Source: an uncultured delta proteobacterium (GTDB taxonomy: Bacteria > Myxococcota_A > Polyangia > Fen-1088). From it: DNA of 64,000 nt. The stretch spans positions 160,001 to 224,000 of the forward strand of contig CAVTRY010000023.1 of assembly GCA_963737265.1 (NCBI GenBank), read 5' to 3'. Shown here piece by piece: positions 23,257 through 49,390 of the stretch (positions are counted from its first letter, which is position 1; each line of letters opens with the position of its first letter). The position numbers and the translations under genes were made by a program. The notes beneath the pieces were generated by a model. The model searched no databases. It worked only from the letters and a program-made list of their open reading frames with translations, and was not told the origin of the DNA.

Positions 23257-23259
23257 GAG

Positions 23260-33094: not shown

Positions 33095-35481
33095 ACGGCA
33101 CGCACGCAAAGGCGACGCTTCCGCACTCGGCTCGGCCCCGCGGGTCGTTCGTTTGCGCGTTCGCCCTGATCGCGACAGCCAGCGCTTCCGCCCGCGCGGC
33201 GAGTCCCACGAGCGCGCTCGAAGGCATCGACCGCCTCGTCGCCGACGCCCTCGCACAAGGAAGGCTTCCCGGCTGCGTCGTCGTCATCGGGCGAAAGAGC
33301 GGCGTCGTGTACCAAAAGGCGTTCGGCTCGCGCGCGCTTTCGCCCGAAAACGAGCCGATGACCGAGGATACCCTCTTCGATCTGGCCTCGCTCACCAAGC
33401 CGGTCGCCACCGCCACATCGCTGATGGTGCTGGTCGACCAGGGCAAGGTCGATCTGGACGATCGGGCCGCGCACTACGTACCCGAGCTCGGAGCGCGTGG
33501 CAAAGAGGCCATCACCCTGCGCCAGCTTCTCACTCACGTGTCCGGGCTGCCGGCGGAAACCGCCGTGGACGACTACCAACATGGCCGCGCCGAGGCGGTC
33601 CGCCGCATCGCCGCGCTCCGACTCAAGGCACCGCCAGGCGCGAAGTTTATCTACTCCGACGTCGGCTTCCTCGTGCTCGAAGAAGTCATCCGCCGAGTTG
33701 CCCGCACCGATCTCGCCTCGTTCGCAGCCGACGCCATTTTCAAGCCGCTCGGTATGAGCGAGACCGGCTTCCTGCCGGCGGCGAAAGACCGGGCTCGCAT
33801 CGCGCCAACCGAACAACGAGGCGATCGATGGATGCGCGGTGAGGTGCACGACCCGCGAGCCTTTCGCCTGGGTGGCGTGGCCGGTCACGCGGGACTTTTC
33901 TCCTCGGCCAAGGATCTAGCAAGGTACGCCCGCATGGTGCTCGGTGCGGGGGCGCTCAACGGCGTTCGCGTGCTTTCGGCCGGGGCGACCGCAAGGATGC
34001 TGGCCCCGCACGACGTGCCGGGCGGCATTCGCGCCTTGGGCTGGGACATGCAAACCACCTACTCGGCGAACCGCGGGACTGCGCAGTCGCGGCGAGCGGT
34101 CGGACACGGCGGCTACACCGGCACGTCCTTGTGGATCGATCCGGAACAAGACCTGTTCGTGATCTTTCTCAGCAATCGCGTTCACCCGAACGGCAAGGGA
34201 TCGATCAACGGGCTCGCCGGCTCTATCGCGTCTCTCGCCGGTTCGGCGCTGGGGAAATTCTCACCCGCCGCAACCGATCCGGCTCTCGCCACCGGTCCGT
34301 TGGCGGTCGGGATCGATGCGCTCGTCGCTGAAGACTTCGCTCGCCTGCGGGGCGCGCGCGTGGCCCTGCTCACCAACGACAGTGCTCGGACCCGCGCCGG
34401 GGTTCGCACCACCGATGTGCTTGCCGCTCGCGGCGGTCTCGCGCTGGTAGCGCTGCTCAGCCCCGAGCACGGATTGCCGGCGAATCGCGACGAATTGATC
34501 GGCGATGGCATCGATGCCAAAACGCGACTGCCAGTCTTCAGCTTGTATGGCGGTTCGTCCCAAAGATGCTCGAACGAAAAACGCTCGAACGCGCCGGCGG
34601 CACCGCGCTCGGTAATGCTACCGCCCGATATCGACACCATCCTGGTCGATCTTCCCGACGTGGGGACGCGTTTCTTCACCTATGCCGGAACCCTGCACGC
34701 GACGATGAAAGCGGCCGCCTTACGCGGGCTTCGGGTCGTCGTCCTCGATCGGCCGAACCCCATCAACGGCGTCGACGTCGCAGGCCCCATGCTGAAACCA
34801 AGCGAGCAGTCCGCCGTGAACCACTTTCCCTTGCCGGTTCGCCACGGCATGACCATGGGCGAGCTCGCCGAGATGATGAACGCCGACGAACATCTCGGCC
34901 TGCACCTCGAAATCGTGCGCATGCCCCACTACGATCGAACCCTCTACTTCGATCAGACCGGACTGACCTGGTGGCCGCCCTCGCCCAACCTGCGCACCGT
35001 CGAGGAGGCGGTCCTCTATCCCGGCGTCGCACTACTGGAGGGAACCAATGTCTCGGTCGGCCGCGGCACCGAGACGCCCTTCGAAGTCGTGGGCGCACCC
35101 TGGATCGACGGCCGCCGTCTCGCCGATGAGCTTGCGGCCGCCGGCCTCGCCGGTGTCTCGTTTGAAGCCACTCGCTTCACGCCCAGCCCGACGCCCAAGG
35201 TGAACCGATTCGCGGGAATTCTTTGCCACGGAATTCGCCTGCGCGTGAGCGACCGTGCCGCCTTCGAACCGGTGCGATCCGGCATGGCGATCGCGATCGC
35301 CCTACGCCGGCTGTTTGGCGCCAATTGGGACGGCCAGCGCCTGCACAGGATGGTCGGCGACCCCGCGGTCGCCGCTGCGATCCTCAAGACCCGCCGCCTG
35401 TCCGAAATCGAGGCAACCTTCAAAGACGACCTCGCCGCCTTCCGCGCCAGGCGGATGAAATACCTCCTCTATCCGCCCTAG
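33091..35481 (+). CDS. namZ: Serine hydrolase (beta-lactamase family) fused to NamZ/DUF1343 exo-beta-N-acetylmuramidase
   Basis: FDLASLTK, LLTHVSGL, YSD, GHGGYTG; SPEHG, DVGTRFFTY, VLDRPNP, RHGMTMGE, PPSPN, SVGRGT; frame open upstream of 33307 with a signal-like segment, start uncertain. Confidence 0.88.
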   Translation: MNGTHAKATLPHSARPRGSFVCAFALIATASASARAASPTSALEGIDRLVADALAQGRLPGCVVVIGRKSGVVYQKAFGSRALSPENEPMTEDTLFDLASLTKPVATATSLMVLVDQGKVDLDDRAAHYVPELGARGKEAITLRQLLTHVSGLPAETAVDDYQHGRAEAVRRIAALRLKAPPGAKFIYSDVGFLVLEEVIRRVARTDLASFAADAIFKPLGMSETGFLPAAKDRARIAPTEQRGDRWMRGEVHDPRAFRLGGVAGHAGLFSSAKDLARYARMVLGAGALNGVRVLSAGATARMLAPHDVPGGIRALGWDMQTTYSANRGTAQSRRAVGHGGYTGTSLWIDPEQDLFVIFLSNRVHPNGKGSINGLAGSIASLAGSALGKFSPAATDPALATGPLAVGIDALVAEDFARLRGARVALLTNDSARTRAGVRTTDVLAARGGLALVALLSPEHGLPANRDELIGDGIDAKTRLPVFSLYGGSSQRCSNEKRSNAPAAPRSVMLPPDIDTILVDLPDVGTRFFTYAGTLHATMKAAALRGLRVVVLDRPNPINGVDVAGPMLKPSEQSAVNHFPLPVRHGMTMGELAEMMNADEHLGLHLEIVRMPHYDRTLYFDQTGLTWWPPSPNLRTVEEAVLYPGVALLEGTNVSVGRGTETPFEVVGAPWIDGRRLADELAAAGLAGVSFEATRFTPSPTPKVNRFAGILCHGIRLRVSDRAAFEPVRSGMAIAIALRRLFGANWDGQRLHRMVGDPAVAAAILKTRRLSEIEATFKDDLAAFRARRMKYLLYPP

Positions 35482-35589
35482 CGATTTCGGCGCACGGCCC
35501 TTGCGCGCCACCCGCGCCGCCCGAACTTCCGCAACTGCCTAAGCGCCGCCTTCTGATAGTATTCCCCGACTAGGACGGTTCCAAATAAC

Positions 35590-37104
35590 GTGATAGGGCA
35601 TAAAGTCAACAACTACGAGCTTCAGCGACTTCTGGGCGAGGGCGGCATGGGGGCGGTGTATCTGGCCGAGCATCCCCTGCTCGGCCGCAAGGCCGCGGTC
35701 AAGATTCTCAAGCGCGAGTTCGTGGCCAACCAGGATCTCGTTCAGCGCTTTCTCAACGAGGCGCGGGCGGCGAACGCGATTCACCACCCGAACATCATCG
35801 ACATCATCGACGTCGGCCTGCTGCCCGAGGGCGTTCCCTACATGATGATGGAATTTCTCGAAGGCGAAAGCCTCGCCTCGCGTCTGCAACGGGTGCGGCG
35901 CCTGCCGCTTGGCGAAGCCGTGAAGCATGCGCGCCAGACGGCTTCGGCCCTGGCTGCGGCGCATGCGCTCGGCATCGTTCATCGCGACCTCAAGCCGGAC
36001 AACCTTTTCGTCATTCCCGATGCGCAGAACCCGGGTCAAGAGCGCATCAAGGTCCTCGACTTCGGCATTGCGAAGCTGCGCCCCGAATTCGCACCGGGGA
36101 CGCCCAAGACGAGCGTGGGCTCGCTGATGGGGACGCCGGCCTATATGTCGCCCGAACAGTGCATGGGCAAGACGAGCGAGATCGATCACCGCTCGGACAT
36201 CTATGCGCTCGGAATCATCTTCTACGAAATGCTGTGCGGACAGCCGCCGTTTGCCGGACAGAACTTCGGCGAGCTGTTCCTCCAGCACGTCAACGGCGTG
36301 CCCCGACCGCCGCGATCGCTCGTGGCCGAGATTCCGGTCCATCTCGAAGCCGTGATTCTGAAGGCCCTGGAGAAGCAGCCGGGCGATCGCATTCAGACCA
36401 TGGACGACTTCATCGCCCTGCTCGCCGAGGGAGGTGGGGCACGCACCCTGCTCGCCGCCCCGCCGGTCGGGCGGACCGCGATTCTCGACGACGGTGCATT
36501 TCCGCCACGAGCCCATGCGGCGGTCAGGTCACCCCGCCGGCCGGCCACCCCGATCCCGACGCTGACAACGCTGTCGTCCGCGATTGGGCAAACGGAAGAG
36601 AGTGGCGATGCGCTGTCGACGGTGCGTCGCGGACGTCGCATTGCTGCCTTGGCAATCGGAGGCATCGCCATCTGTGCTTTGGGCGTGGGTGTGGGGCTGA
36701 AGTATTGGCAGCACCCTGCCGGGGAGGGCCTGCAATCCCCGGAGCGTCCAGGCGAAACTTCACAGCCAACCGCCGCGCCGGCCGAGCCGCTGCCGGCCTT
36801 CGTGCCGCCGCCTACCGAGCTGGCAGCTCCCAAAGCGCCGGAGATACCGTCGGCGGAGATCGCGCGAAAACACGAAGGGATCGGCGCCGCAGAGGACATC
36901 CCACCTGCGGACAAGAATCCCGTTGCCGGCGAACGGGCAAAGAGGCATGCGGGCGGGCGACCTCGAGGCCACGCGCAGCGAGAGGAAACGCACGAAACGT
37001 CGCCCAAACCCTCGCCGCCCATCGAGGCGCCTTTGCCCAGTGCCCCAACCCAGCCCACAAGTCCCGCCGCGGCACCTCGCATCATCAAGCGCGACAAGTT
37101 CTGA
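35590..37104 (+). CDS. Membrane Ser/Thr protein kinase
   Basis: GEGGMG, AAVK, HRDLKPDN, DFG, GTPAYMSPE; TM helix and Pro-rich tail. Confidence 0.93.
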   Translation: MIGHKVNNYELQRLLGEGGMGAVYLAEHPLLGRKAAVKILKREFVANQDLVQRFLNEARAANAIHHPNIIDIIDVGLLPEGVPYMMMEFLEGESLASRLQRVRRLPLGEAVKHARQTASALAAAHALGIVHRDLKPDNLFVIPDAQNPGQERIKVLDFGIAKLRPEFAPGTPKTSVGSLMGTPAYMSPEQCMGKTSEIDHRSDIYALGIIFYEMLCGQPPFAGQNFGELFLQHVNGVPRPPRSLVAEIPVHLEAVILKALEKQPGDRIQTMDDFIALLAEGGGARTLLAAPPVGRTAILDDGAFPPRAHAAVRSPRRPATPIPTLTTLSSAIGQTEESGDALSTVRRGRRIAALAIGGIAICALGVGVGLKYWQHPAGEGLQSPERPGETSQPTAAPAEPLPAFVPPPTELAAPKAPEIPSAEIARKHEGIGAAEDIPPADKNPVAGERAKRHAGGRPRGHAQREETHETSPKPSPPIEAPLPSAPTQPTSPAAAPRIIKRDKF

Positions 37105-37144
37105 TAGTGCCGTGAGAAAAGTAGCCTTGTTCCCGCGAGCGGAC

Positions 37145-37302
37145 TCAAGACGTGTCCATAAATGGACCCGTCTTGAAGATTTTTGAAGGGAGGGCCGCTG
37201 CCCTCCCCTCGTCCGCGAAGTAAATTCGCGGACTTCACCCCACCTGCAGCCGAGCCCTTGGCTCGGCTGCAGAAGAACTGTCCAATTTTTGGACAGTTCT
37301 TC
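37145..37302. repeat. Cluster of five adjacent inverted repeats (structured intergenic element)
   Basis: Hairpins at ~37145-37176, 37188-37207, 37211-37233, 37244-37272 (13-bp stem) and 37272-37302 (14-bp stem); TATAAT at 37311. Confidence 0.7.
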
Positions 37303-37366
37303 AGCTTGGATATAATCAGGTATTCAGCGGCTCGAACGATATCTTCTTAACTTTCGCAGCAGGCCA

Positions 37367-38365
37367 ATGGCTAGACAGCGTTCCAAGGTGCTCGTCGTGA
37401 ACGGGGACAGCGAGATTGCCCTCGCCCTTCACCGTGCCCTCTATCTCGGAAACGATCGCTTCGACGTGCTCGTCGCGGGCAGCGCCGAAGTAGCCCGCGA
37501 GATCGTTCGCGACGTGGGCATCGAGGTGCTGGTCACCGATTCCGACCTACCCGGTATGAGCGGCGTGGATCTCGTGTGCTGGGCCGCCATCGAATTCCCG
37601 GAGAGTTTTTTCGTCGTGATCACGGACGACGATGTCCCCGACCTACAAGACAAGATGCAAGGGCTTGGCTGTCTGCGCCTGGTGCGTAAACCCTGTCAGC
37701 CACAAGCCGTCCTCAAGATCGTCCGCGAAGCGCTCGATTGTCGTCATCGGCTCTCGGGATGCTTCTCGGCCCTGTCTGCCGCCGATCTGATTCAAATGCT
37801 TTGTTTGGCCCAACGAACCTCGTCGCTCCACATCAGCGCCCATGGGGTGCAAGGGACGGTCATGGTCAAGGAGGGAAAGCTGCTCCATGTAACGTGGGGC
37901 ACGTTGGTCGGGCAACGCGCCCTGCGCGAAATCATCGCGGCGGAAGACGGCGTGTTCCGCACGGCCCCCCTGCCGCCCGAGATCGAGCCAACCATCACCG
38001 GCGACTGGCAGCACGCCCTGATGGAGGCCGTGCGCGCGCTCGACGAACGCGCGCATGGATCGCTGCGCCAGTCGGGATCGTTTCCGGCTATCCGCGTGGA
38101 CGACTCGCTTTTCGACAACATGCTAAGCAGCACGCCCGCGCAGGAGGCGAAACACGTGCGCGCCCCGAACAGCCACGGCGACGGGCGCGCCATGCCCCGC
38201 TCGCCGGGCGCGGCATCGTCGCTCGTGGACAAGGGATTCGCGGCGTTGCGGGCGGGAAATATCGACGACGCACGCCAGTGCTGGCTCGCCGCCAAGCACC
38301 TCGATCCGGAAAACCGTTCGCTCGATTTGAACTTGAAAAAACTGGAAGGCAAGACTTCCCGCTAG
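37367..38365 (+). CDS. Receiver domain + DUF4388 (PATAN-like) protein with TPR-like tail
   Basis: VLVTDSDLPGMSG...VRKP receiver; LSGCFSALSAADLIQML...G.V....GKLLHV...G..AL..I....DGVF DUF4388 pattern. Confidence 0.85.
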   Translation: MARQRSKVLVVNGDSEIALALHRALYLGNDRFDVLVAGSAEVAREIVRDVGIEVLVTDSDLPGMSGVDLVCWAAIEFPESFFVVITDDDVPDLQDKMQGLGCLRLVRKPCQPQAVLKIVREALDCRHRLSGCFSALSAADLIQMLCLAQRTSSLHISAHGVQGTVMVKEGKLLHVTWGTLVGQRALREIIAAEDGVFRTAPLPPEIEPTITGDWQHALMEAVRALDERAHGSLRQSGSFPAIRVDDSLFDNMLSSTPAQEAKHVRAPNSHGDGRAMPRSPGAASSLVDKGFAALRAGNIDDARQCWLAAKHLDPENRSLDLNLKKLEGKTSR

Positions 38366-38418
38366 ACGCGGCAGCGATTGGTGGAAGTCGAGAGCGTAAA
38401 TCGCAATCGGAGGTCCGT

Positions 38419-38905
38419 ATGGGTCCTGGTGAAACAAGAGACGAATTGCAGGGTCTGCTGGTAGTCATGGCGTCGCTGTCGCACGGGCTGGAACAGATGC
38501 TGGGCCGTGGCGCGGATACCGTGACCTTTCGCGCGGGCAGGACGGTAGGGCTCAAGAGCTCGGTCAGCCGCCGGGAGGCGGACATCCTTCCCGCGTTGGC
38601 GATCGTCGGCGAAGAGCTCAAGGCCAAGGGCATCGTCTGGCCCTTCGAAGCCTGGAAGCCTGCCGCGGCGCCGAGCTTCGTCTACGAGAAAGGCGGCAAG
38701 CAGGCGGTCAAGTTGGTGTTCCGCAATTGCATGGTTCGCTGTTCGCTTTTCCGCTACGGCCACGAACAGAAACAGTCGCTGTGCATGATGAACCACGGAC
38801 TGTTCTGCGGGTACGTGCAAAAAATCACCGGCAAGCGCGCCGAGCTCGAACATCCTGCACGCAGGCGAAAACGCCTGCCTCAAAGAGCTCGTGTTGCAGG
38901 GCTAG
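38419..38905 (+). CDS. V4R-like domain protein (frameshift at ~38851)
   Basis: GGAGG RBS; LGRGA....FRAGR.VG, FRNCMVR, LCMMNHGLFCGY; removing one base gives ELEILHAGENACLKEL. Confidence 0.7.
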
Positions 38906-38914
38906 GAGAACACC

Positions 38915-39850
38915 ATGGCCAACAAGGTAACGGTTTCATTCGAATGGTTGTCCGGCTGCTCGGGCTGCGAGCTCAGCATCGTGGATCTGCACGAGCGCCT
39001 GCTCAAGGTGCTTGAGGAAATCGACATCGTCCGCCTGCCCATCTTGATGGACGTGAAGGGCTACCCGAAGGCAGCGCTGGGAATCGTCACGGGCGCGCTG
39101 CGCACCCACCACGACATCGAATGCGCGAAGAAGATGCGCGAAAGCTGTAACGCCATCCTGGCGTTCGGCACGTGCGGCGTGTACGGCGGTCCACAGGGAT
39201 CGGGCTACGCCCACACCCAGGCCGAGCTGGCCGAGACCGCATTCGTCAAGAACCCGACGACCAGCACCCACTTCGTGCCCGACAAAGACGTTCCGAAATT
39301 GCTGGAAGAAGGCGTCCTGCCCCTCGATGCGGCCATCCCGGTGGATTTGTACTTGCCCGGTTGCCCACCGCACGCGTTCTACGTCTTCGAGGCGCTGTCG
39401 GCGATTCTGCACCAGAGCCAACCCGACTTCGGCCGCCACAACGTGTGCTTCCACTGCGACCGCAAGATGAAACACACCGACGTGACGACACTGCGCCGGG
39501 TGCACGAAGGGAGCTACGAAAAGGACACCTGCTTCCTTTCGCAGGGAATCCTGTGCATGGGCAGTGCGACCCTGGATCGCTGCCGCGGCGCCTGCCCGAC
39601 GCGCGGCATGCCCTGCTCCGGCTGCACCGGGCCGTCCGAATCCATCGTCCTCGAACCCAACCGGGATATCCGCACCGAGATCGCCACGCGCATGTCCATG
39701 ATGACCAAGATTTCCAAGGCCGCTATCACCACCGAGATCGAAGCGCGTGCCAAGACCTACTACGCCTACGCCATGGCGTCGCCGGTCTTCCGGCAAAAAC
39801 CAACCTTCCTCCTCAGACGCTGGATCTCCCAGCAAGGAGCCGCCCGATGA
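38915..39850 (+). CDS. mvhG: [NiFe]-hydrogenase small subunit, MvhG-like (group 3), cytoplasmic
   Basis: WLSGCSGCE, AFGTC..YGG, YLPGCPP, VCFHC, CFLSQGILCMG.AT..RC...CP.RGMPCSGC; no Tat signal. Confidence 0.88.
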   Translation: MANKVTVSFEWLSGCSGCELSIVDLHERLLKVLEEIDIVRLPILMDVKGYPKAALGIVTGALRTHHDIECAKKMRESCNAILAFGTCGVYGGPQGSGYAHTQAELAETAFVKNPTTSTHFVPDKDVPKLLEEGVLPLDAAIPVDLYLPGCPPHAFYVFEALSAILHQSQPDFGRHNVCFHCDRKMKHTDVTTLRRVHEGSYEKDTCFLSQGILCMGSATLDRCRGACPTRGMPCSGCTGPSESIVLEPNRDIRTEIATRMSMMTKISKAAITTEIEARAKTYYAYAMASPVFRQKPTFLLRRWISQQGAAR

Positions 39851-41252
39851 GCCGCACCCTTTCCATCGATCCCGTCACCCGCATCGAAGGTCACGCCAAG
39901 GTCCACATCGAAATAGGCGACGACGGCAAGGTGGGCGCCGCCACCATGCACGTGCTGGAATTTCGCGGCTTCGAGCGCTTCGTGCAGGGCATGCAAGCCG
40001 AGCTCATGCCCACCATCACCACGCGCATCTGCGGCACCTGCCCCCACGCCCATCACCTGGTCGCCGCCAAATGCCTGGACAAAATGTTTTCGGCGCCGCC
40101 GCCCAAGACCGCCTTGCTTTTGCGCCAGCTGCTCAATTGCGGCAGCATGATCCACTCGCACGCCATTCACTTCTTCGCCTTGGCTGGCCCGGATCTCTTC
40201 CTCGGCCCGTCGAGCCCGGTGGCCAAGCGCAATCTGGTCGGCTTGCTTGAAGTCGCGCCCGATTTGGCCAAGAAAGCGCTGCGTCTGCGCAGCATCGGAC
40301 AAAAAATCGTCGAGGCCGTGGGCGGGCGAGGCACCCACCCCGTCACCGCCGTGGCCGGCGGCATGTCGTGCAGCCTTGGCAAGGACAACCTTGAAACGCT
40401 GAAGGCCTTGACGAGCGAAGGCCTGGAACTCGCCAAGCTGGTGCTCGATGCCGGCAAGAAGGCGCTGCTCAAGGATGCCAGCCTGATGGCCCGACTGCCG
40501 CTGGCGGTTCACGATATGGGAACCCTGCAGGGCAACAAGCTCGATCTCTACGACGGAACCCTGCGCGTGCGGCGACCCGACGGAAGCGTTGCCCTGGATT
40601 TTCCGGCGCAAGACTACGCCAAGTACATGCGCGAGGAGGCCCTGCCGTACAGCTATGGCAAGCAGGTCTTGTTGCAAGACAAGGGTGGCGCTTCCCAGGT
40701 ATACCGCGTGGGACCGCTCGCCCGGCTCAATTGCGCCGAGGCCACCGGAACGCCGCTCGCCGATGCCGCCCTCGGCGACTTTAAAAAAATCTGCGGTGAT
40801 CCCACCAACAAAACCGTGGCAGGTCACTGGGCGCGTCTCGTAGAACTGCTCCACTGCGCCGAAAAGGCCGCGGCCATCCTGTGCGACGAGGCCATTCTGT
40901 CCGACGATGTACGCGCCAAGACGGGCGCGCTTAACCGGCACGCCGTCGCGCACGTCGAAGCTCCGCGTGGCGTGCTCATCCACGACTATCAAGTGGACGA
41001 GAACGCCATCATTCAGTCCGCCAATTTCGTGGTGGCGACCCAACACAACATCGCCAGCATCAACACCAGCATCAAGGATGCCGCCACCAGCCTGCTCGGC
41101 AAGAGCGACCAGGAACTGCTCGAACGGCGTCGAATTCGCGATCCGCTGTTACGACCCATGCCTGTCGTGCTCGAACCCATCGCGTGGGTCAGATGCCCAT
41201 GGAAATCAGCATTCATCGCAAGGGCGACTGCGTGCGCAACATTAGGCGTTAG
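39847..41252 (+). CDS. mvhA: [NiFe]-hydrogenase large subunit, MvhA-like (two apparent frameshifts at ~41122 and ~41174)
   Basis: IDPVTRIEGH, L1 RICGTCPHAH, YRVGPLARLN, VEAPRG; corrected C-terminus IRCYDPCLSCSTH followed by a cleavable tail RVGQMPMEI... Confidence 0.88.
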
Positions 41253-41265
41253 CGAGGAGATAGCC

Positions 41266-41985
41266 ATGCCCCATGTCCAAATCGAAGAGCCTGGCTGCCG
41301 CGACTGCGGCCTGTGCGTGGACATCTGTCCCACCGACGTGTTCGCGCGCGAGGAAGCCAAGAACATCGCCAAGGTCGCGCGCGAGGACGATTGCATCGGC
41401 TGCACATCGTGCGTGTACATCTGCCCCTCTCGTTGTCTCACCGTCACCGACGCCGTCGCGCAGCGTCCGTTCCATCGCATCGAGAAGAACGAGGCCTTGA
41501 TTTCGCACTTCCTGCAACAAACGCCGGCGACCGCGCAGCTTTCGCAGGCCGATTACGACGAGGCCTTGAAAGACACGCACGTGCGCTTGCGCGCCCTGGC
41601 CGACGCCTTGAAGGAAGTCATGGGACGCGGCCAAAAGGCAGTGGGCCGATCCGCGGGAACCCTGGCCGCCACGCACATGCCCGAGATGTACGAGACCAGC
41701 AACATCAACGACCTGCTCGCTGCCCTGCGCCGCCGCTTCGCCCATGCCTTCGAATTCGAAGCCAAGGTAGAGGGCGATGGCGACACCGTGACCCTGACCT
41801 TTCCCGGCTGCGCCCTTCGCAGCGTGGTGGCCGGGCAAGGCGAGGTGGTCGGCTCGGCCAACCTGTGCGACTTGTTCCACGAGTACTGGGCGGGCCTCAT
41901 GGGCGCCTTTGCCGGCCGCAACTACAGCGTGACCACGCTATCCACCGTCGGCCAGTGCTCGATGAAATTTCAGATTCGTGGTTAG
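41266..41985 (+). CDS. 2x[4Fe-4S] ferredoxin fused to a V4R-like domain
   Basis: Own RBS GAGGAG; CRDCGLCVDICP, CIGCTSCVYICP; C-terminal MGRG...GR.AG, FPGCALR, LCDLFHEYWAG, QCSM resembling the upstream V4R protein. Confidence 0.82.
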   Translation: MPHVQIEEPGCRDCGLCVDICPTDVFAREEAKNIAKVAREDDCIGCTSCVYICPSRCLTVTDAVAQRPFHRIEKNEALISHFLQQTPATAQLSQADYDEALKDTHVRLRALADALKEVMGRGQKAVGRSAGTLAATHMPEMYETSNINDLLAALRRRFAHAFEFEAKVEGDGDTVTLTFPGCALRSVVAGQGEVVGSANLCDLFHEYWAGLMGAFAGRNYSVTTLSTVGQCSMKFQIRG

Positions 41986-42019
41986 AACGACAACACCCAC
42001 TTACCAGGAGGATTGGATC

Positions 42020-42400
42020 ATGGCTTCGCGTACCGAAAAAATGCAGGACATCTTGCGCGGCCTTCGAGGGGCCTCGCCCGACATCATTGGCGCCGCCGTA
42101 GTCAGCATCGACGGCTTCATCGTCGCCTCCGTGCTGCCCGCGGAAGTCGACGAAGAATTGGTTTCGGGCATGGCGGCGGCCATGCTGGGCGTCGGCGAGC
42201 GCATCTCGTCCGAGCTCATGGCCTCGGTCATGGAACAAGTCTACGTCCGCAGCGAGAAGGGCTACGTCGTGCTTAACGCCGTCGGCGCCGACTCCGTGCT
42301 CGTCGTGCTGACCACCAAGGACGCCAAGCTCGGCCTCGTATTCATCGAGGTCAAGCGTCGCTGCGTCGAATTGGCCAAGGCGATTCAAGCGTCCGCGTAA
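42020..42400 (+). CDS. Roadblock/LC7 (MglB-like) protein
   Basis: IIGAAVVSIDGFIVAS, VSGMAAAML, QVYVRSEKGYV, AKLGLVF. Confidence 0.92.
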   Translation: MASRTEKMQDILRGLRGASPDIIGAAVVSIDGFIVASVLPAEVDEELVSGMAAAMLGVGERISSELMASVMEQVYVRSEKGYVVLNAVGADSVLVVLTTKDAKLGLVFIEVKRRCVELAKAIQASA

Positions 42401-43044
42401 TGACCTCCACGGGCGCACCCGTGGCAGGCACGATCGCAGCCGGTCGCCTGCCAGGGGCAAACCCCTCGCGCTTCTCGCCCGCCCAATCTGGCCTCATCGT
42501 TCTATTGCTTCTCGTTGGGGTCGCCGATCTGGCAGTGCTGGACGCGATGGTGTTGCCCCGCTACCTCGCCCTCAAGGCGAGTGCTGGTGTCGTCGTGCCC
42601 GCGCGAAACGAAACTGCGCCCGCGCCGATTCCACTCCCGACCGGCTTTCCCGCGCCGCCCGCGCCCCAGGTGGCGGAGATCCCCGCGCCGGCGATCCCGA
42701 CGGCCGAGACTCCCGAGGCTCTTCGGCCGCTGCTGTTCTGGCGAAACGCCTCGCTTCTCACGGAAGACGCCCAAAGCACACTCTCGCGCTTGCGTGACAT
42801 CATGGCCGCGCGGCCCGCATTACTAGTCCGTTTGAGCGGACACACCGACGATCTCGGGCCTGTCCCCGTCAATCGTGTGCTCTCCTGGCGACGGGCGCGC
42901 GCCGCCCAGGCATGGCTGGTCGAGCGCGGCATCGATAAAATGCGTATCGAGGTTCAGGGCTTGGGCGCCACCATGCCCGTGGATGGCGTCGTCGTTCCGT
43001 CGGCTCGTGCGAAAAATCGCCGGGTCGAGATCGAGTTTCGCTAG
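42400..43044 (+). CDS. Membrane-anchored OmpA-family peptidoglycan-binding protein
   Basis: TM helix, Pro-rich linker, SGHTDDLG...NRVLSWRRA...GLGA..P...NRRVEI; TAATG overlap. Confidence 0.88.
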   Translation: MTSTGAPVAGTIAAGRLPGANPSRFSPAQSGLIVLLLLVGVADLAVLDAMVLPRYLALKASAGVVVPARNETAPAPIPLPTGFPAPPAPQVAEIPAPAIPTAETPEALRPLLFWRNASLLTEDAQSTLSRLRDIMAARPALLVRLSGHTDDLGPVPVNRVLSWRRARAAQAWLVERGIDKMRIEVQGLGATMPVDGVVVPSARAKNRRVEIEFR

Positions 43045-43055
43045 AGGACCTATTC

Positions 43056-44910
43056 ATGTCGCTCCTTCACTTACTGATTCTCCTTAGCGCCGCTGGCGCG
43101 CTGGTGTTTTTTTTCACCGGGTGGCTGGCGCGCGGTGGGCGACGAACCGGTGCGGCCGAGGTCGCGCGCCAGGACCCTGAAACCCAAGCCGCGCGCGAGA
43201 CCGCGCAGGCCGTGGAGAGCGAGCGCAAGCGAGCGCACGAGCAACTGGAAGAGTTGCAGACGACCTTGAAGGAGACCGCGGCTCGTCTGCTTGCCGAACA
43301 ACAGCGATGCGCGACGGCCAGCGAGGCAAAGACAGCGGCCGAGCGTGAACGCGACGACGCGCAAGCAGAGGCGCAGCGCTTGCTTCGCGAGACCAAGACC
43401 CTCGGCGAACGCCTGCGTGCCGCCGAGACCCACAATCGGCAGGCGTTCGAACAAGAGGAGAGCACTGCCGAGGCGTGGGAGCGCCAGTTACAGGAGCAGA
43501 GGGCGGAGCAACTGCGACGGAAGGATATCGTCGATACCGAGTTGAAGAGCGTGCGCCAGGCGCTCGAACGAAGAGAAGGCCGCAAGCGCCCTGCTGGCGC
43601 AACGTGAGCAGACCGTGCAAGGCAGCAAAACCGAGCTTGAGCGCGAGCTTGCGCAAGCCCGGTCGGAACGGCAGCGCCACGAAGGCGACCTCAGAGTCTT
43701 GGCCGAGTCGCTCGGCCGCGCCGAGGAAGACAAGCGGGCAGCGGTGGTCTTGCAAGCCCAAAGCGAAGCGAGTTGGCGGCAGAAGCTGGAAACCACGTTG
43801 GCCAAGAGCGCGATTCAGGTATCCGAGCTTTCCGCCTCGTGGGCAGCAAAGCAAGATGGTCTTCTTGGCGATCTCCAGCGTCTGTCGGAAGAGCTATCGC
43901 GATGCAAAGCAGATTGCGACGAGCTGGCTACGCAAAACCACGAGCTTTCCGCCCAGCATCGCGTGGTCAGCGAGGCGCTGTCGGCGGTGGGCTCCACCGC
44001 GGCCACGGCACAAAACGAGTGGCACGAAGCACAGACGCGCCTGGCGGAGCTGGAGAACTTGCGGCGGGAAAACGCGGCCCTTCGCGAAGAAAAGTCGCAC
44101 GCAGAAGACTCGGCGCGAGAGCTAGCGGTACGCGGAGACGATGCACGCGAGGTGCGCGTCCAGCTCGCGGCCGCGCAAGCCAAGCTGTTCGAGCTGGAGC
44201 GGATTCTGGAAGAGAACCGCAAGCTGCGCGACGAGGCGGCGGATCTTCGCCAGCACGGCGAGGCCGCGTCAGAGCTGGAAAAACTGACTACCGAGCACAA
44301 GCGCCTCCGCCTCGACGCCGAGCTGATGGCCCGCCGACTGCTCGATCTCCAGCAAGACCAGAGCGAATTGGCCGATCTGCGCGCGCGGGCGCAGGACATG
44401 GCGGCGCTGGGCGGGGAAGTGGAATACCTGCGCCGGCGAGAAAAAGACTTGGAAGCTCGGCTTTATGCCAGCGGGCGCCTGACGCGGGACGATCTTCCCG
44501 CCATGACCGGCGTGCAGGCCCTGCACACCGTCGGCACCGACATGGAGGCGAGCTTGCACGCTCTGGTCCGCCCCGACGGCGCGCGGACCGCCGTGCTGGC
44601 CGACGTCCAGGGCTTCCTTATCGCCAGCGCGGGCGAAACCCATCCGCAGGAAGGACTGGCCGCCTTCGCCGCCATCGCCAGCGACATGGTCGCCCGCACG
44701 CGCATGCTGTTGCCGCTGGCCGATGTGTCCTCGGTGCGCATCAGCGATACCAATCAAATCGTTCTGTCATGCCGGCTCTTCGCCACCGGCGGTCAGGGTC
44801 TCGGGGTCGCCACCTTGGGTCCCGGCGAGCCAAGTCGCGAGGATGCGGATCGGGTGGTGAGCGAGCTGACGACGGCGGTCGTAGGCAAGACAGAGCCCAC
44901 CGACGAGTGA
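43056..44910 (+). CDS. Membrane-anchored long coiled-coil protein with C-terminal roadblock-like domain (frameshift at ~43568)
   Basis: N-terminal TM helix, ~430 aa rich in E/R/A/L heptads, C-terminal ARTAVLADVQGFLIAS...LAAFAA; one-base removal joins ORFs 43056-43607 and 43615-44910. Confidence 0.75.
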
Positions 44911-44927
44911 AGCCATCCCGCTTTCGC

Positions 44928-45485
44928 TCACGAATGACCGGGATCGGACTTGCCCAGCAGGATGTCCTCGATGGCCGGATCCACGTACCCTCGGCTGGCC
45001 TCGCGCCCCTGCGCAAGCTGCTCCTGGCTCGCGCCGATGGCTCGCAGCACATGGGCCACCGCTTCGGGAATAGCTTGGCGAACCTCGGCGGTCAGATCGC
45101 GGCCATAGCGATCGAAGCACTGCCCCTCGATACCGACGAAGACGATGGACGGTCGACGTCCGCCGGGGGCCATGCGCTCGGCGACGTCGATGAGCTCCGC
45201 GATGCCCACGGTGTGCGAAATCGCGGCGCCGGCGGCGTAACGGGCGATGGCCGCGCCTTCCATCGCGACGCACGTCCCGGCCGGACGCCCCGTGCTCATG
45301 GCATCGACCAGAATAATTCGTTCCGCCCCTTGCACGACCTCCAGCAGATCGAAACCGAGTTGAGGTGTTAGCTCGACGTGCACGCCCGGCGGCAACGACA
45401 ACGACGCCAGAATTCGTCCCACCCGAATCGCAACGCCGTCGTCGCAAACCAGTTCGTTGCCCAAACAGAAAATTCGCGTGTTCAT
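44928..45485 (-). CDS. Hydrogenase maturation endopeptidase (HycI/HybD family)
   Basis: LGNELVCDDGVA, IILVDAM, SHTVGI, FVGIEG, LTAEV. Confidence 0.9.
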   Translation of the reverse strand: MNTRIFCLGNELVCDDGVAIRVGRILASLSLPPGVHVELTPQLGFDLLEVVQGAERIILVDAMSTGRPAGTCVAMEGAAIARYAAGAAISHTVGIAELIDVAERMAPGGRRPSIVFVGIEGQCFDRYGRDLTAEVRQAIPEAVAHVLRAIGASQEQLAQGREASRGYVDPAIEDILLGKSDPGHS

Positions 45486-45554
45486 GACGTGCCGACGGGG
45501 ACTTGTCCCGTTGCAAATCCTACCACCGGTCGAGCAAAGTCATCGCTATTCTCC

Positions 45555-47030
45555 CTAGTACCAAGCCAACGCGCGGGGTGGCAGCTTATGCGATGGATCG
45601 GCGTTGGTCGTCGTTGTGGCCGAAAGGGTGCCGGCGACAAGATCGAACGCGCGAACGAAGGCCGCGCTGGTTGTCGTTCCGTCCGCGACCACGATGCGCC
45701 CCCTGTCCACATCGGCCAGCACCGCACCCAGGGAAAATCCCTCGGCCGAATCGAACACCTTTACGGGCTGGCCGCCCGTCATCGACAACGACCACAATCG
45801 ATCGGGCGGAGAATTCGACAGATCCCCAAGCGTCACCGCGGCGACGTTGTTTTCGCCGAGCGCCGCCAGCGACGAATTGGAAAAGGGCAAGCTGCCCACT
45901 GTCGCGGCACCAACCAGCGAGACAACCACGGGTGGGGCGACGCTCAAGTCGATAGCCGCGATGGCCGAAGTGGCCGCCTGCTGCGGTCCGTAGGCGCCAT
46001 CGCAAGCAACCAGGAGCTTGCGCTCGGCCGCAAGGTAGCTAAGCGCGCCGCAGTCTTTCGCCCCCGCAATGTCGATAGTCCCCACGACTTGGTCGAGATT
46101 CGGATCCACAACCACAACCCGCCCCACGCCGTAACTACCATAGTCAGCGGCAATTCCGTTGAGCGACACGAAGACCTTGCCCTCGGCCAAAAGCGCACGA
46201 TCGGCACGGGGCAAGATATTGGCACCAGCGGGCGCGTAGGGTTTCAAATCGATCCGCCCCAGAATCTTGAGCTGGCTTGGATCGACGATGAGGAGATCGT
46301 CGCCTTCGTCGAAATCGCCGGGTGCTGGCGTGGGCTTCGCGTTCTCTTCGAAGCGCGAAACGTATGCCTTGCTTGCCGACAGCGTCACCACGTCGTGGGG
46401 ATTCGAGGCGAAGCCGGTTCCGACGGCAAGCTGGCGGAGAGGCGCGCACGTCGCCGGGTCGAGCCAGGTCAACGCGGCGTTCTGCCGATCGATAATCACG
46501 ACCTCGCCACCAATTGTCGGCTGTGAAGGCAGCACCACGTCGCCTGTCAGGGTCATGGTGAACCCCTGCGGCCCGGAACCCGAATTGAAGCAACCGTCTT
46601 TGAGCAGGTTGCCGTCGCGATCGAGAAAGGAGATGGACGAGGATTGATAGTCGCTGTTCACGACCACGATTCCGTTCGGCGCGGTAATCGGGTTTGCCCC
46701 TGCCTCGGCCGGCGAGGCATCGACAGCGGCTGTGCTTGGCCCTGCCTCGGCCGGCGAGGCATCGACGGCACTGCTTGGCTGTGCTTCGGCCGCCGCGGCA
46801 TCGACAGCGGCAGTGCTTGGCCCTGCTTCGGCCGCCGTGGCATCGACGGCGGCAGTGCTTGGCCCTGCTTCGGCCGCCGTGGCGTCGACAGCGGCACCGC
46901 CGTCGATATTAGCGCCAGCGTTGGCGTCGACTGGAGGAGGACTGCCGGTGTTGCTGCCACACGCGCCAAAGGTGGATGCAACTACCAACGCCAAGAAGAA
47001 ACGACCCACAATTTCGAAACGACGATTCAT
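45555..47030 (-). CDS. Beta-propeller lipoprotein, BtuG/YncE-like putative cobalamin-binding partner
   Basis: Lipobox FGAC; NSDYQSSSIS, NPHDV, KAYVSRF, GDDLLIVD; directly downstream of the TonB-dependent receptor. Confidence 0.65.
   Translation of the reverse strand: MNRRFEIVGRFFLALVVASTFGACGSNTGSPPPVDANAGANIDGGAAVDATAAEAGPSTAAVDATAAEAGPSTAAVDAAAAEAQPSSAVDASPAEAGPSTAAVDASPAEAGANPITAPNGIVVVNSDYQSSSISFLDRDGNLLKDGCFNSGSGPQGFTMTLTGDVVLPSQPTIGGEVVIIDRQNAALTWLDPATCAPLRQLAVGTGFASNPHDVVTLSASKAYVSRFEENAKPTPAPGDFDEGDDLLIVDPSQLKILGRIDLKPYAPAGANILPRADRALLAEGKVFVSLNGIAADYGSYGVGRVVVVDPNLDQVVGTIDIAGAKDCGALSYLAAERKLLVACDGAYGPQQAATSAIAAIDLSVAPPVVVSLVGAATVGSLPFSNSSLAALGENNVAAVTLGDLSNSPPDRLWSLSMTGGQPVKVFDSAEGFSLGAVLADVDRGRIVVADGTTTSAAFVRAFDLVAGTLSATTTTNADPSHKLPPRALAWY
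46695..46895 (-). repeat. Intragenic ~42-bp tandem repeat encoding AAVDA(T/S)(A/P)AEAGPST
   Basis: About five copies forming a linker after the lipobox. Confidence 0.85.
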
Positions 47031-47032
47031 GT

Positions 47033-49120
47033 CTACTGTTCCTTTGTCTTGTTGTTTGCGGATGACCACGCAAGGGTCAGGTAAAACTCACGCCCGGGGA
47101 GCGGGTAATTGGCCAAATCGTAAACTGGAGAATTGGCGAGGTTTTGTGCACTGAACCGCATGGAGAGATTGGCGGGCAGGCCGGCGTAGACGCCGGCGCC
47201 AAAGAGCAGGCGCGGCGCGACTCGGTTCAGGTTGGTCGGATCGGTATAGTTGCCGCCGGTTGCATCCATGTCCACATACAGCCCGACTTGCGTGCGTGAT
47301 CTGAATTGGATTGCGCGCCATTCTGGCCGCGCGTAGAGACGGTACCGGGGACGCAACGGCAACTGGCGGCCGTTGGCCGCGACGACCGAGGACGTATCGC
47401 GGGCATCGGTATAGGTGCCAGCCGCGGCAATTCGCGCGTGGCTGCCGAATTCAAGCGACGCATTGCTCTCGACCCCGAGAATACGCGCGCTTCCGACGTT
47501 GTAGGCCCTGGCGCGCCCAACGCCGACCTTGTACTGAATCAGCTGGTTGGCCAGGCTAGCGAACAGAGCGGTAGACCAGGAAACGGCGATTGGTCCGCGC
47601 TTCCAGCACACAACCGGTCCGACGTCACCATTGAGCCCCGATTCCGGCACCAGTCCCGGGTTGCCCTGCAAGTAGCCAGTGTTGCCATAGAGCTCAATGG
47701 TGGACGGCAAACGCGCATAACGCCCTCCGTTCGCGCGCACAGCAATCCAGGATCCCATGTCCTTGACCAGCGACAAACGCGGGATGGGCAGAACGTGCGT
47801 GACCTCGCCCGAGGTAGGCTGGAATTGGCCAAGCAAGGAACGGCCCGAGGTGTCTTCGCGCGCGGCCTCGATGCGAAAGGAGGCGATGACGTCCAAGGTG
47901 ATGGGCTGGAGCCAGAAGTCGCTTTCAATTCCGGAGGCGCCAAAGACCCGTGTGGCCGGCGCGCCGTCGAGGCCGGTACCGACAGAGTCCGAAGGACGAA
48001 AACGGTCGAGACGTGCATCGAATACGCCGGACAAGCTCAGCCAAGGTCGAGCAAGTCGCCGCCAAGCGAGAGTGGCGCCCGCCGCGCGTGTTCGGTCGTA
48101 GGCATTGGTGGGGCTGGCATTGATCTGGTGGGCAAGATCTTCAAAGTGCGAAAGATCGTAGTCGCCGTAGGCCGTCGCGCGCAGGCGTCCCAGCAAGCCA
48201 CTGTCCCGGTTCGATTCAAAGGCCAGGATTCCCGTTGCACGCAGGGTGCCGAGACGCGCCGTCGGGTCTGCGATGCTTCCGATGCCGGGTAGCCCTTGGT
48301 CGCGGTCGAAAAAGATGAGCGAGGCCGTCAGGCGTCGGTCGCCCGGCAGATCCAACACAGCCTTCGCGGTGCCGTCAGCTTGATGAAGGTCATTGTTGCG
48401 TCGCTTGACCGTTCGGTCCTCGGTCACGTTCAGGGTCGTGCCCTGGGTATCGACGTAGGGAAAGTCGCCGTCGCTGGTGAGTAGATGGACGCCGCCGTAG
48501 ACGTGCCACCGTCCCGAATTCCACGAAGCGCGCCCGCCGCCGTAGTAGGTGCCAAACGAACCGCCGCCGGTCTCCAGCTCAACGCGGTTGTGCCTGGGCG
48601 CTGCCGTGGTGATGGAAACCACGCCGCCGATGGCCGAGGCGCCGAATCCGATGGGGCTCATACCACGGTAGATTTCGATGCGTTCCACGTCGCCGAGCGG
48701 AATGGCACCGAGATCCACGCCACCTCCCGTGGCCGTGTTGAAGGGAACGCCGTCCACGTAGACCAACACTTGATTGGCCGTCGAGCCGCGCAAAGACACG
48801 GTCGCGGTTGATCCCATGCCGCCCAAGCGGGTAACGGCCGTCCCCACTTGCTCCGACAAAAGCTGCGACACCGATTCCGCCGCACGCGGCGTGCGATCCT
48901 GCGTGATGACCGAGGCCGAGGCGGCGCGATCTTCGCGCGGCGCCTCGCCCGACGTGGGAGCCGCCACCACCACGGTCTCGTAAACCGATGGCTGGGCGAA
49001 CGCGGTTCGCGCATAGAACCCGGCCGCGCCGCAACCCTGCAGCGCAATCAGCGTCGTGAAATGATGGATGAACCGTCCACGGGCGTACCGCGCGCCCGTG
49101 CCAGGTCGATGGAACCGCAC
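47033..49120 (-). CDS. btuB: TonB-dependent receptor, probable cobalamin transporter
   Basis: TonB box ETVVV, plug VSLRGS...VLVYVDGVP...VERIEIYRG, ELYG...GNPGLVPE, YPLPGREFYL; riboswitch upstream; GTG start at 49120 inferred. Confidence 0.85.
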   Translation of the reverse strand: MRFHRPGTGARYARGRFIHHFTTLIALQGCGAAGFYARTAFAQPSVYETVVVAAPTSGEAPREDRAASASVITQDRTPRAAESVSQLLSEQVGTAVTRLGGMGSTATVSLRGSTANQVLVYVDGVPFNTATGGGVDLGAIPLGDVERIEIYRGMSPIGFGASAIGGVVSITTAAPRHNRVELETGGGSFGTYYGGGRASWNSGRWHVYGGVHLLTSDGDFPYVDTQGTTLNVTEDRTVKRRNNDLHQADGTAKAVLDLPGDRRLTASLIFFDRDQGLPGIGSIADPTARLGTLRATGILAFESNRDSGLLGRLRATAYGDYDLSHFEDLAHQINASPTNAYDRTRAAGATLAWRRLARPWLSLSGVFDARLDRFRPSDSVGTGLDGAPATRVFGASGIESDFWLQPITLDVIASFRIEAAREDTSGRSLLGQFQPTSGEVTHVLPIPRLSLVKDMGSWIAVRANGGRYARLPSTIELYGNTGYLQGNPGLVPESGLNGDVGPVVCWKRGPIAVSWSTALFASLANQLIQYKVGVGRARAYNVGSARILGVESNASLEFGSHARIAAAGTYTDARDTSSVVAANGRQLPLRPRYRLYARPEWRAIQFRSRTQVGLYVDMDATGGNYTDPTNLNRVAPRLLFGAGVYAGLPANLSMRFSAQNLANSPVYDLANYPLPGREFYLTLAWSSANNKTKEQ

Positions 49121-49204
49121 AAAAGACCCTTCTGCCCGCGCGGGAAGAAGGGTTCGGCTAACACCGGACGGCCTTCTCCGCGGAAGGACATTGGAAGTAC
49201 GTGG

Positions 49205-49390
49205 ATCGCGAGTGGATATCCTGGCTCGGAAGCAGCACGACAGGGTCGTGTGGCGTCGATTCTCGCCTTCCCAGGGCATGCACCCCAGTGGCGTCACGAG
49301 AATCTTCTTCTCCCTTACAGTGGCGGGACCGCGCCGGATTCGCACCGGCTTCCCCATTCAGAGGCGTGGCTACCTCTGACTCGCGATGGC
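49205..49390 (-). ncRNA. Cobalamin (AdoCbl) riboswitch
   Basis: Minus strand reads GGGAAgccGGTGcgAATCCggcgCGGTCCCGCCACTGTAA...GCCACTGGG...GGGAAGG...GAGCCAGGA. Confidence 0.93.

Follow-up and report, generated by a model that had tools for sequence, protein, structure and literature searches.

The locus described here occupies positions 37367-45485 of a 64,000-nucleotide stretch of contig CAVTRY010000023.1 from an uncultured delta proteobacterium, a soil myxobacterium. This whole stretch is called the window below, and all coordinates are positions in it unless another contig is named. Eight co-oriented genes and one convergent gene are arranged around a [NiFe]-hydrogenase. The first gene on the forward strand (37367-38365) encodes a 332-amino acid protein in which Pfam detects a REC domain and a DUF4388 (PATAN) domain, followed by a C-terminal single-TPR tail. 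Next come a small Cys/His-rich V4R-like protein (38419-38905; 161 amino acids in intact relatives, with a frame change at 38844-38851 in the assembly), an MvhG-like hydrogenase small subunit (38915-39850; 311 amino acids, Pfam Oxidored_q6 3.1e-24) and an MvhA-like large subunit of the NiFeSe_Hases family (39847-41252; 466-468 amino acids in intact relatives, with frame changes at 41118-41125 and 41169-41176). These are followed by a ferredoxin with two [4Fe-4S] motifs fused to a V4R-like domain (41266-41985; 239 amino acids, Fer4 families over residues 4-59) and a Roadblock/LC7 protein (42020-42400; 126 amino acids, Pfam Robl_LC7 1.7e-12, alternative GTG start at 41978). The forward-strand series ends with a membrane-anchored OmpA-like, peptidoglycan-binding protein (42400-43044; 214 amino acids, Pfam OmpA 4.2e-16) and a protein with an N-terminal membrane anchor, a long coiled coil and a weak C-terminal Roadblock-like domain (43056-44910; frame change at 43562-43569). 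A HycI-type hydrogenase maturation endopeptidase is encoded convergently on the reverse strand (44928-45485; Pfam HycI 3.4e-11). The spacing of the co-oriented genes ranges from a 4-base overlap to 54 bases, and a promoter and terminator pattern scan of the locus gave nothing usable. No Hdr, diaphorase or cytochrome family was found among the window proteins scanned (span 31310-49357). A first-pass annotation made from the DNA letters had listed these nine genes, and their content, order and strands are as it claimed; three of them, however, are not open as deposited, and its two V4R calls fall below threshold.

Both hydrogenase subunits have their best solved relatives in the Mvh-Hdr complex, which bears out the earlier description of the enzyme as Mvh-like. 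The large subunit is closest to MvhA (5odc_F, 4.7e-100) and the small subunit to MvhG (5odc_E, 1.9e-63 over residues 6-247). Cysteines are aligned throughout the latter comparison, and the alignment places MvhG-type ligands for three [4Fe-4S] clusters in the small subunit. Against the large subunit, the solved chains rank as MvhA (338.8 bits), 9sfi_g (310.8 bits), the bifurcating NiFe enzyme 7t2r_D (292.1 bits) and the NAD-reducing, HoxH-type 5xf9_D (284.5 bits); because the bifurcating and NAD-linked enzymes score not far behind MvhA, a group 3c placement is tentative. Group 1/2-type structures score below 91 bits. The RICGTC motif of the window large subunit was read directly and the DPCLSCSTH motif across two artefactual frame changes. 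Across 11 aligned sequences both vary little or not at all, and both are kept in an intact homologue (P0001, 88% identical) that aligns end to end with MvhA. Homologues of 466-468 amino acids are common in Polyangia-labelled metagenome bins. A 23-residue C-terminal tail follows the CSTH motif and fits the presence of the HycI protease gene. The intact Ni-Fe and Fe-S ligands, together with the dedicated protease, point to a working-looking and probably catalytically competent hydrogenase.

As deposited, the locus contains four +1 frame changes in three genes, each inside the same 8-base word, GCTCGAAC. The small V4R-like gene passes from frame 1 to frame 2 at 38844. The large subunit gene passes from frame 1 to 2 at 41118 and from 2 to 0 at 41169, and its first frame continues into the ferredoxin gene as a 937-amino acid open reading frame. 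The coiled-coil gene, a single gene in relatives, passes from frame 0 to 1 at 43562. The forward-strand words at 41118-41125 and 41169-41176 carry an extra A where relatives have CTGCTCGACGG and TGCTCGACCCA, and contigs of public run X1 omit one base at 41123 and 41174, respectively; the word at 43562-43569 also carries an extra A, and X1 omits one base at 43567. For the fourth word (38844-38851) the extra A is presumed, the insertion at 38849 being judged from relatives only (L010 has GAGCTCGACATCCTGCAC; X1 gave no row for this position). At the three sites that it covers, X1 has a depth of only 4.3-4.8, its contigs are otherwise mismatch-free over these pieces, and it may be the source sample. 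Runs X2 and X3 yielded only short, partly fitting pieces of other organisms. Relatives read GCTCGAC at the homologous places, and intact homologues show ELLDGVEF and CSTH where the assembly breaks.

The same pattern extends over the genome. With the word taken on either strand, a +1 frame change was seen at 39 of 269 confidently phased GCTCGAAC sites versus 18 of 1347 GCTCGAC sites. Other control words ranged from 0/43 to 13/281, the raised value (13/281) belonging to GCTCGAAG. When one base was removed at each GCTCGAAC site of the window and the frame examined for openness, the test was informative only at 43562 in this GC-rich DNA. We also weighed quadruplet or programmed +1 decoding at GCTCGAAC and discarded it: shifts occur with the word on either strand, and the codon phase at 41169 differs from that at 38844 and 41118, so a translational explanation fails. 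The four frame breaks are assembly errors. Given the homologue readings, GCTCGAC in the relatives and the omissions in X1, we regard the genes as intact in the organism itself. Across the genome, the assembly suffers from a systematic one-base insertion at GCTCGAAC that interrupts genes, and many of its genes will look broken. Three further observations concern sequence quality. The frames 23257-26202 and 25932-28907 overlap and look like one gene of about 1880 amino acids; the frame change within 23257-28907 lies near a GCTCGAAC word at 26121, and its direction is unlike that at the four studied sites. Within the coiled-coil gene, X1 has CT where the window has TC at 44205-44206 (one contig, depth 5.1). 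Finally, hydrogenase or neighbour genes give split or shortened matches in relatives' loci L001, L022, L034, L036 and L037, which indicates that frame errors are not confined to this assembly.

The two proteins that had been called V4R required closer comparison. Neither gave a Pfam V4R match at E<=0.01, and the small protein matched no family at all at that level. V4R matched 5 of 24 homologues of the small protein (best E 0.072), and no other family matched them at E<=10. In a genome-wide scan the small protein scored 13.1 bits against a V4R (PF02830) cut-off of 31 bits; the genome has three true V4R domains elsewhere, and profile comparison of the small protein with these gave a probability of 1.5%. 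Other comparisons link the two proteins to each other and hint at the V4R fold. Profile alignment by hhalign (88%, E 3.1e-6) shows homology between the small protein and the C-terminal domain of the fusion, and Cys, Cys, His and Cys positions line up between them; Atlas feature neighbours of the small protein are TRAPP (0.92) and V4R (0.90). The fused domain comprises about 150 residues with three invariant Cys; among 30 of its relatives scanned, PF14196 was above cut-off in three and V4R reached 20.1 bits in one. An Atlas model of a full-length ferredoxin-fusion homologue (P0132, predicted local distance difference test 0.74) has template-modelling scores of 0.68-0.70 to archaeal clusters named 'V4R domain', and of 0.71 to a 163-amino acid Myxococcota cluster that matches the size and member count of the small protein's top feature neighbour. 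Profile searches of the two proteins against solved chains returned noise or the ferredoxin domain only. We use the term V4R-like: the family call itself is sub-threshold in Pfam, and the weaker evidence from mutual homology, Atlas neighbours and the structural model may point towards it. V4R and TRAPPC3 proteins share a common fold and a four-cysteine zinc site, and structures of Asgard Roadblock proteins have been solved, according to the available part of PMC10933270. V4R is said to bind ligands or to be an enzyme (an 'aliphatic reductase') in the available part of a 2026 preprint.

The Roadblock protein scores 47.3 bits against a Robl_LC7 (PF03259) cut-off of 23. Its best solved relatives are 7f8m_A (2.4e-24) and 7yh1_D, with MglB at only 0.006. 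The C terminus of the coiled-coil protein matches Robl_LC7 below the Pfam cut-off (E 0.0029, 17.7 bits) and reaches 2.4e-6 with our own Roadblock profile. A hydropathy scan showed a hydrophobic segment from about residue 24 of the OmpA-like protein and a hydrophobic N terminus in the coiled-coil protein. In the product of the first gene, DUF4388 (3.6e-15, 56.5 bits) and Response_reg (1.3e-08, 35.5 bits) are both above cut-off and TPR_2 (0.0026) is below it. The domain order is REC and then PATAN, and the phospho-acceptor Asp and the Lys-Pro can be read from the translation. Pfam detected no histidine kinase in the operon.

To place the locus among its relatives, one genome per species was scanned, which gave 37 loci; genes were counted only where enough DNA was available on the relevant side. 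These loci come from Myxococcales/Polyangia-type bins except for one labelled Actinomycetota and one labelled Proteobacteria, and their large subunits are 55-89% identical to that of the window. A core consisting of the small V4R-like protein, small subunit, large subunit, ferredoxin fusion and Roadblock protein is colinear in 35 of 36 Polyangia loci. Taken singly, the small V4R-like protein is present in 35/35, the ferredoxin fusion in 36/36 and the Roadblock protein in 35/36 loci (it is missing in L032). The coiled-coil protein was found in 26/30 and HycI in 21/26; in the 24 loci with a HycI match the gene is convergent in eight and co-directional in 16. The Roadblock protein is the most conserved (median identity 87%), ahead of the small V4R-like protein (75%), small subunit (73%), large subunit (64%) and ferredoxin fusion (55%). 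The association of V4R-like and Roadblock genes with the hydrogenase that the first-pass annotation had pointed out is thus kept far beyond chance, in 35/36 Polyangia loci and in 15 of 16 non-redundant metagenome groups described below.

Other parts of the proposed linkage are more restricted. The OmpA gene is present at this locus, as had been noted, but in only 17/34 Polyangia loci, and REC-DUF4388 in 17/30. Upstream open reading frames were taken from 34 loci, and 30 were scanned with Pfam after L004, L020, L032 and L037 had been dropped as broken or spurious. DUF4388 was detected in 14 (12 with REC), a Ser/Thr kinase domain (Pkinase) in another 14, and no family in two. The DUF4388 and kinase architectures share a C-terminal tail, ...LDPxNR....NL..., whose pattern is found in 28 of the 34 frames and in two more by eye. 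The linkage to DUF4388 stands only within the genus-level clade of the window, whereas sister lineages have the Ser/Thr kinase instead (14/30 versus 14/30), and the 'non-kinase' output that had been proposed is not general, since a Ser/Thr kinase with the same TPR tail occupies the position in 14/30. No MglA-like GTPase was found in any of the 37 Polyangia loci, which leaves the suggested role in polarity as inference; the single MglA-like gene of the genome is on another contig, C21. The Polyangia form is set apart by the lack of a GTPase in cis, the exchange of REC-DUF4388 and kinase on a common tail, and the OmpA and coiled-coil anchor. In a whole-genome search the ferredoxin fusion was found in 11/12 other species of the window's genus, 0/24 genomes from other genera of its family, 1/24 from other families of the class and 1/400 others sampled over the phylum.

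Full-length relatives of the ferredoxin fusion in a profile search included proteins named from Magnetococcales, Vulcanimicrobiota/Xenobiia, Candidatus Sabulitectum and Nitrospirae. We scanned metagenomes with a narrower ferredoxin-fusion alignment and obtained 79 loci. Hydrogenase genes adjoin the fusion in 68 of these, over a GC content of 0.31-0.70; the other 11 are contigs of 1.3-6.3 kb. Two layouts occur. The first, small V4R-like protein, small subunit, large subunit and ferredoxin fusion, was seen in 35 loci (GC 0.39-0.70). The second, ferredoxin fusion, small subunit and large subunit, was seen in 32 loci (GC 0.31-0.48), the annotated ones of which have archaeal-type neighbours. Such neighbours include RFC, PAC2 and an archaeal prepilin peptidase, and in this layout (L087-L123) a protein of 410-470 amino acids with an N-terminal Roadblock domain is encoded directly 3' of the large subunit. 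Clustering of large subunits at 90% identity sorted the 28 loci with at least 3 kb on both sides into 16 groups, of which 15 contain a Roadblock gene, 14 have it within 1.5 kb and three contain an MglA-like GTPase. The Roadblock profile was built partly from these same metagenome loci, and its members also pass Pfam.

Pfam annotation of 18 metagenome loci revealed recurrent signalling neighbours. In L049 the order is Roadblock, Arf-like GTPase, AAA, Roadblock and cassette. L051 has the same layout with a GTPase that lacks a Pfam match and is linked to that of L049 by phmmer. L106 has an Arf-like GTPase, a Roadblock protein and DUF4388, and in L083 a ParA-like protein, DUF4388 and Roadblock precede the cassette. 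The cassette of L094 is followed by two Roadblock genes and a PilB-type ATPase. L085 contains kinase-ankyrin, REC-ankyrin and REC proteins, the cassette, three Roadblock genes and a PAS-SpoIIE protein. In L072 a fusion of REC, DUF4388 and Roadblock comes directly after the cassette (DUF4388 23.2 bits, below the 25-bit cut-off). Roadblock and hyp genes flank the cassette in L055, hyp genes flank it in L072 also, and pyruvate:ferredoxin oxidoreductase genes lie near it in L082. In L075, L077 and L078 only about 140 large-subunit residues precede the ferredoxin fusion, and the upstream DNA gave no match to a small subunit or a small V4R-like protein; this form may be cut-down or degenerate. Judged by these sequences, the cassette is widespread, spanning bacteria and archaea of very different base composition. 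A literature search found no paper describing a hydrogenase with V4R and Roadblock partners, although supplementary tables (for example S2 of PMC4316618) might list such loci. The word 'hydrogenase' does not occur in the available portion of the PMC4316618 text, nor 'Mvh' in the available portion of a Geobacter comparative paper; the first-pass annotation had put forward a possible parallel in Geobacter, an Mvh-like cluster near chemotaxis genes.

The absence of an adjoining MvhD or Hdr gene, also remarked on at first pass, holds in the window and in the 116 related loci: tblastn gave no MvhD/HdrA-like match over these 116 cassette loci (1.32 Mb), a search by which distant forms could be missed. 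Two FlpD/MvhD matches exist in the genome, both on contig C21, namely a 925-amino acid HdrA-like fusion and a 190-amino acid protein. In the region C21:150001-182000 the HdrA-MvhD fusion (925 amino acids) adjoins pyridine-nucleotide-disulphide oxidoreductases and the second MvhD adjoins MTHFR-like and glutamate-synthase-like genes; the region looks like a bifurcation-type cluster without a hydrogenase. A same-genus relative has a free-standing MvhD in an operon of HdrA, MvhD, Fe-S and NAD-binding genes, which shares a contig with the cassette and lies about 535 kb away from it. The genome also encodes a separate NAD-linked Hox-type hydrogenase at C11:104001-124000, with Nuo51/2Fe-2S and NuoG-like subunits and a large subunit, directly beside hypF, hypC, hypD and a likely hypE (AIR-synthase-type). 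Metabolic H2 turnover could be served by this enzyme. At a distance of about 6 kb the genome encodes flagellar basal-body components (FliF, FliE and rod proteins), an unexpected find in a myxobacterial lineage.

We read the locus as the Polyangia form of a widespread, undescribed cassette in which an Mvh-type hydrogenase, a V4R-like pair and a Roadblock protein would constitute a cytoplasmic H2/redox sensor coupled to a signalling protein, and assign this reading a probability of about 0.5. By gene order, the two V4R-like proteins appear to stand in place of the MvhD/Hdr partner. Under this proposal H2 would be oxidised at MvhA, and electrons would pass through the three MvhG clusters to the two [4Fe-4S] clusters of the ferredoxin domain, whose redox state would act on the V4R-like pair, made up of the small protein and the fused domain, by altering its conformation or its ligand state. 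A Roadblock platform would carry this pair; the soluble Roadblock protein would form it together with the coiled-coil Roadblock protein and its membrane anchor, and the OmpA-like protein would keep it at the envelope, tethered to inner membrane and wall. The TPR tail would dock the REC-DUF4388 protein, or the Ser/Thr kinase in sister lineages, onto this platform, and the signal would be passed to phosphorylation- or GTPase-based control of a polar or envelope process.

Several points weigh against a sensory function. All of the support is gene context, and the V4R assignment is weak by the Pfam cut-off and the 1.5% profile probability. A matured, protease-dependent enzyme with all of its clusters fits a metabolic hydrogenase equally, and group 2b regulatory [NiFe]-hydrogenases, unlike the window enzyme, are not known to have a C-terminal tail or to need a protease. 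The signalling neighbours might serve to regulate or position the enzyme instead of reading its state, and five metagenome loci whose flanks were scanned (L060, L068, L075, L077 and L082) have no signalling gene beside the cassette. In the 37 Polyangia loci no MglA-like GTPase is encoded, and OmpA is found in only half (17/34). Finally, an MvhD/HdrA partner in trans is possible: in 61 sampled genomes (G000, that of the window, and 60 relatives) FlpD/MvhD is present in 13 of the 13 that bear the cassette versus 11 of the 48 others, the 13 representing only about two lineages.

The likeliest alternative, possible but in our view doubtful, is that the cassette encodes a metabolic, ferredoxin-linked soluble hydrogenase. 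Its ferredoxin domain would exchange electrons with the cellular ferredoxin pool, and the V4R-like, Roadblock, OmpA and coiled-coil proteins would be structural or would place or regulate the enzyme, so that the signalling proteins control the hydrogenase and not the reverse. The complete active-site and cluster ligands and the dedicated protease agree with this, as do the hyp genes that flank the cassette in L055 and L072, the pyruvate:ferredoxin oxidoreductase genes near it in L082 and the five scanned loci that lack a signalling neighbour. The genome, however, already has a Hox-type hydrogenase with its hyp genes. Moreover, the most conserved protein of the cassette is the Roadblock protein (median 87%), and we know of no role for Roadblock proteins in redox enzymes. 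Scaffolding alone would also hardly account for the REC-DUF4388-Roadblock fusion or for neighbours of the DUF4388, MglA-like, REC and kinase types that keep recurring.

We consider it unlikely that a group 3c Mvh enzyme of the classical kind is at work here, with MvhD/HdrA-type proteins from elsewhere in the genome, such as those encoded on contig C21, as its docking partners in flavin-based electron bifurcation. The two FlpD/MvhD matches (the 925-amino acid fusion and the 190-amino acid protein) would supply such partners, and the 13/13 versus 11/48 co-occurrence favours them, but that co-occurrence rests on about two lineages. The canonical mvhDGA genes are adjacent, and here no MvhD/HdrA-like match was detected in 116 loci; the free-standing MvhD operon of the relative, moreover, has its own electron-input module and lies about 535 kb from the cassette. 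An H2-driven small-molecule reductase is similarly improbable. The V4R family is named after vinyl reductase, and in this model the V4R-like domains would be catalytic or substrate-binding and would reduce a bound ligand, perhaps itself a signal. Every complete cassette has two V4R-like modules around the enzyme, one of them fused directly to the electron-carrying ferredoxin domain, and conserved Cys/His positions are common to both. On the other side, no candidate substrate pathway lies nearby, and the conserved cysteines form a structural zinc site in solved V4R/TRAPPC3 proteins (available part of PMC10933270). That the operon is decaying, with real mutations and a hydrogenase pseudogene behind the four shifts of frame that the deposited sequence shows in three genes, is barely credible, since all four changes fall in one 8-base word, otherwise identical X1 contigs lack the extra base at three sites, relatives have GCTCGAC, and the genome-wide counts (39/269 versus 18/1347) fit systematic assembly error.

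The proposed sensor can be compared with several known systems. Like MvhAGD-HdrABC of methanogens (group 3c, 5ODC), it has both Ni-Fe ligand motifs, a small subunit with three clusters and a C-terminal tail of the kind removed by a protease. Unlike that complex, the window cassette and the 116 related loci have no adjoining MvhD/Hdr, and the neighbouring positions hold the ferredoxin-V4R-like fusion with its two [4Fe-4S] clusters and the second V4R-like protein. Known or putative sensor hydrogenases comprise [NiFe] group 2b enzymes (HoxBC/HupUV) acting with a histidine kinase, the putative group 2c and [FeFe] group C. As in these, the hydrogenase is encoded with signal-transduction proteins and has no energy-converting partner. 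The window enzyme is nevertheless of another lineage (group 1/2 structures below 91 bits), its tail and protease are kept, and its partners are V4R-like, Roadblock, DUF4388 and Ser/Thr kinase proteins, not a histidine kinase or diguanylate cyclase.

Resemblances on the signalling side lie elsewhere. PATAN genes occur near MglA/MglB genes, as stated in the available part of PMC4316618. The MglA/MglB and PATAN system of myxobacteria resembles the cassette in its Roadblock-domain and REC-DUF4388 proteins, and sister cassettes have an MglA-like GTPase; it differs in that the 37 Polyangia loci have no GTPase in cis and that the Roadblock protein here is nearer Asgard and conservon types (2.4e-24 versus 0.006 for MglB). 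The same portion of PMC4316618 (Wuichet and Sogaard-Andersen 2014) reports that Rup group 1 GTPases are accompanied by a cytoplasmic coiled-coil protein and a membrane protein with C-terminal OmpA. As in those neighbourhoods, coiled-coil and membrane-anchored OmpA proteins accompany a signalling switch, but the window locus has no Rup GTPase, diguanylate cyclase or histidine kinase, and OmpA is limited to 17/34 Polyangia loci. With two V4R-like and two Roadblock-type proteins, and a TRAPP cluster (0.92) as Atlas neighbour of the small protein, the window cassette also resembles the eukaryotic and Asgard platforms of TRAPP and Ragulator type, in which Bet3/TRAPPC3 proteins of V4R fold are joined by longin or Roadblock subunits. 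In contrast to those platforms, it is not known to have exchange-factor activity, it lacks a GTPase in cis and is known from genes alone, and its platform would sit on a redox enzyme. By analogy, we tentatively suggest a more specific form of the sensor: an H2-gated, TRAPP/Ragulator-like platform in which a V4R (Bet3-fold) pair and a Roadblock pair would be mounted on an Mvh-type hydrogenase that is active. Redox changes of the fused ferredoxin might then switch the action of the platform on a small GTPase or on the docked REC-PATAN or kinase protein, the GTPase being MglA-like and encoded in cis in some phyla and in trans in Polyangia.

A few features around the locus were also noted. Two perfect hairpin palindromes lie at 37239-37299, 5' of the first gene. 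The second, GAACTGTCCAATTTTTGGACAGTTC at 37275, occurs in 27 genomic copies, whose loop is A5 or T5 (four bases long in one copy), and was not found in the relatives' loci searched; it was rejected as an operator of the operon because its 27 copies mark a family of small repeated extragenic palindromes. Further upstream, 31310-33094 encodes a Ser/Thr kinase with ankyrin repeats, and it is followed by 33307-35481, which encodes a beta-lactamase-family domain fused to NamZ exo-muramidase domains; the stop-to-stop frames of these two genes (31310-35481) overlap. A kinase-ankyrin protein is also encoded near the cassette in metagenome locus L085.

H2 is a central currency of anoxic soils and sediments, and to our knowledge the well-studied H2 sensors all come from a single [NiFe] group, with a histidine kinase as their output. 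Should the metabolic alternative prove right, the cassette would still be an undescribed partner set for a group 3 hydrogenase. If the sensor reading is true, the cassette would represent a second, unrelated sensor design that links H2 or redox state to cell behaviour by a new path: an Mvh-type enzyme whose output is taken up by V4R-like, Roadblock, PATAN, kinase or small-GTPase proteins. The platform form, if true, would be the first case of a sensor built from a group 3 [NiFe]-hydrogenase and a prokaryotic example of V4R and Roadblock proteins acting jointly in switch control. Roadblock/V4R gene sets have been discussed mainly as forerunners of eukaryotic GTPase regulators, and the hydrogenase would provide the first concrete input for them.

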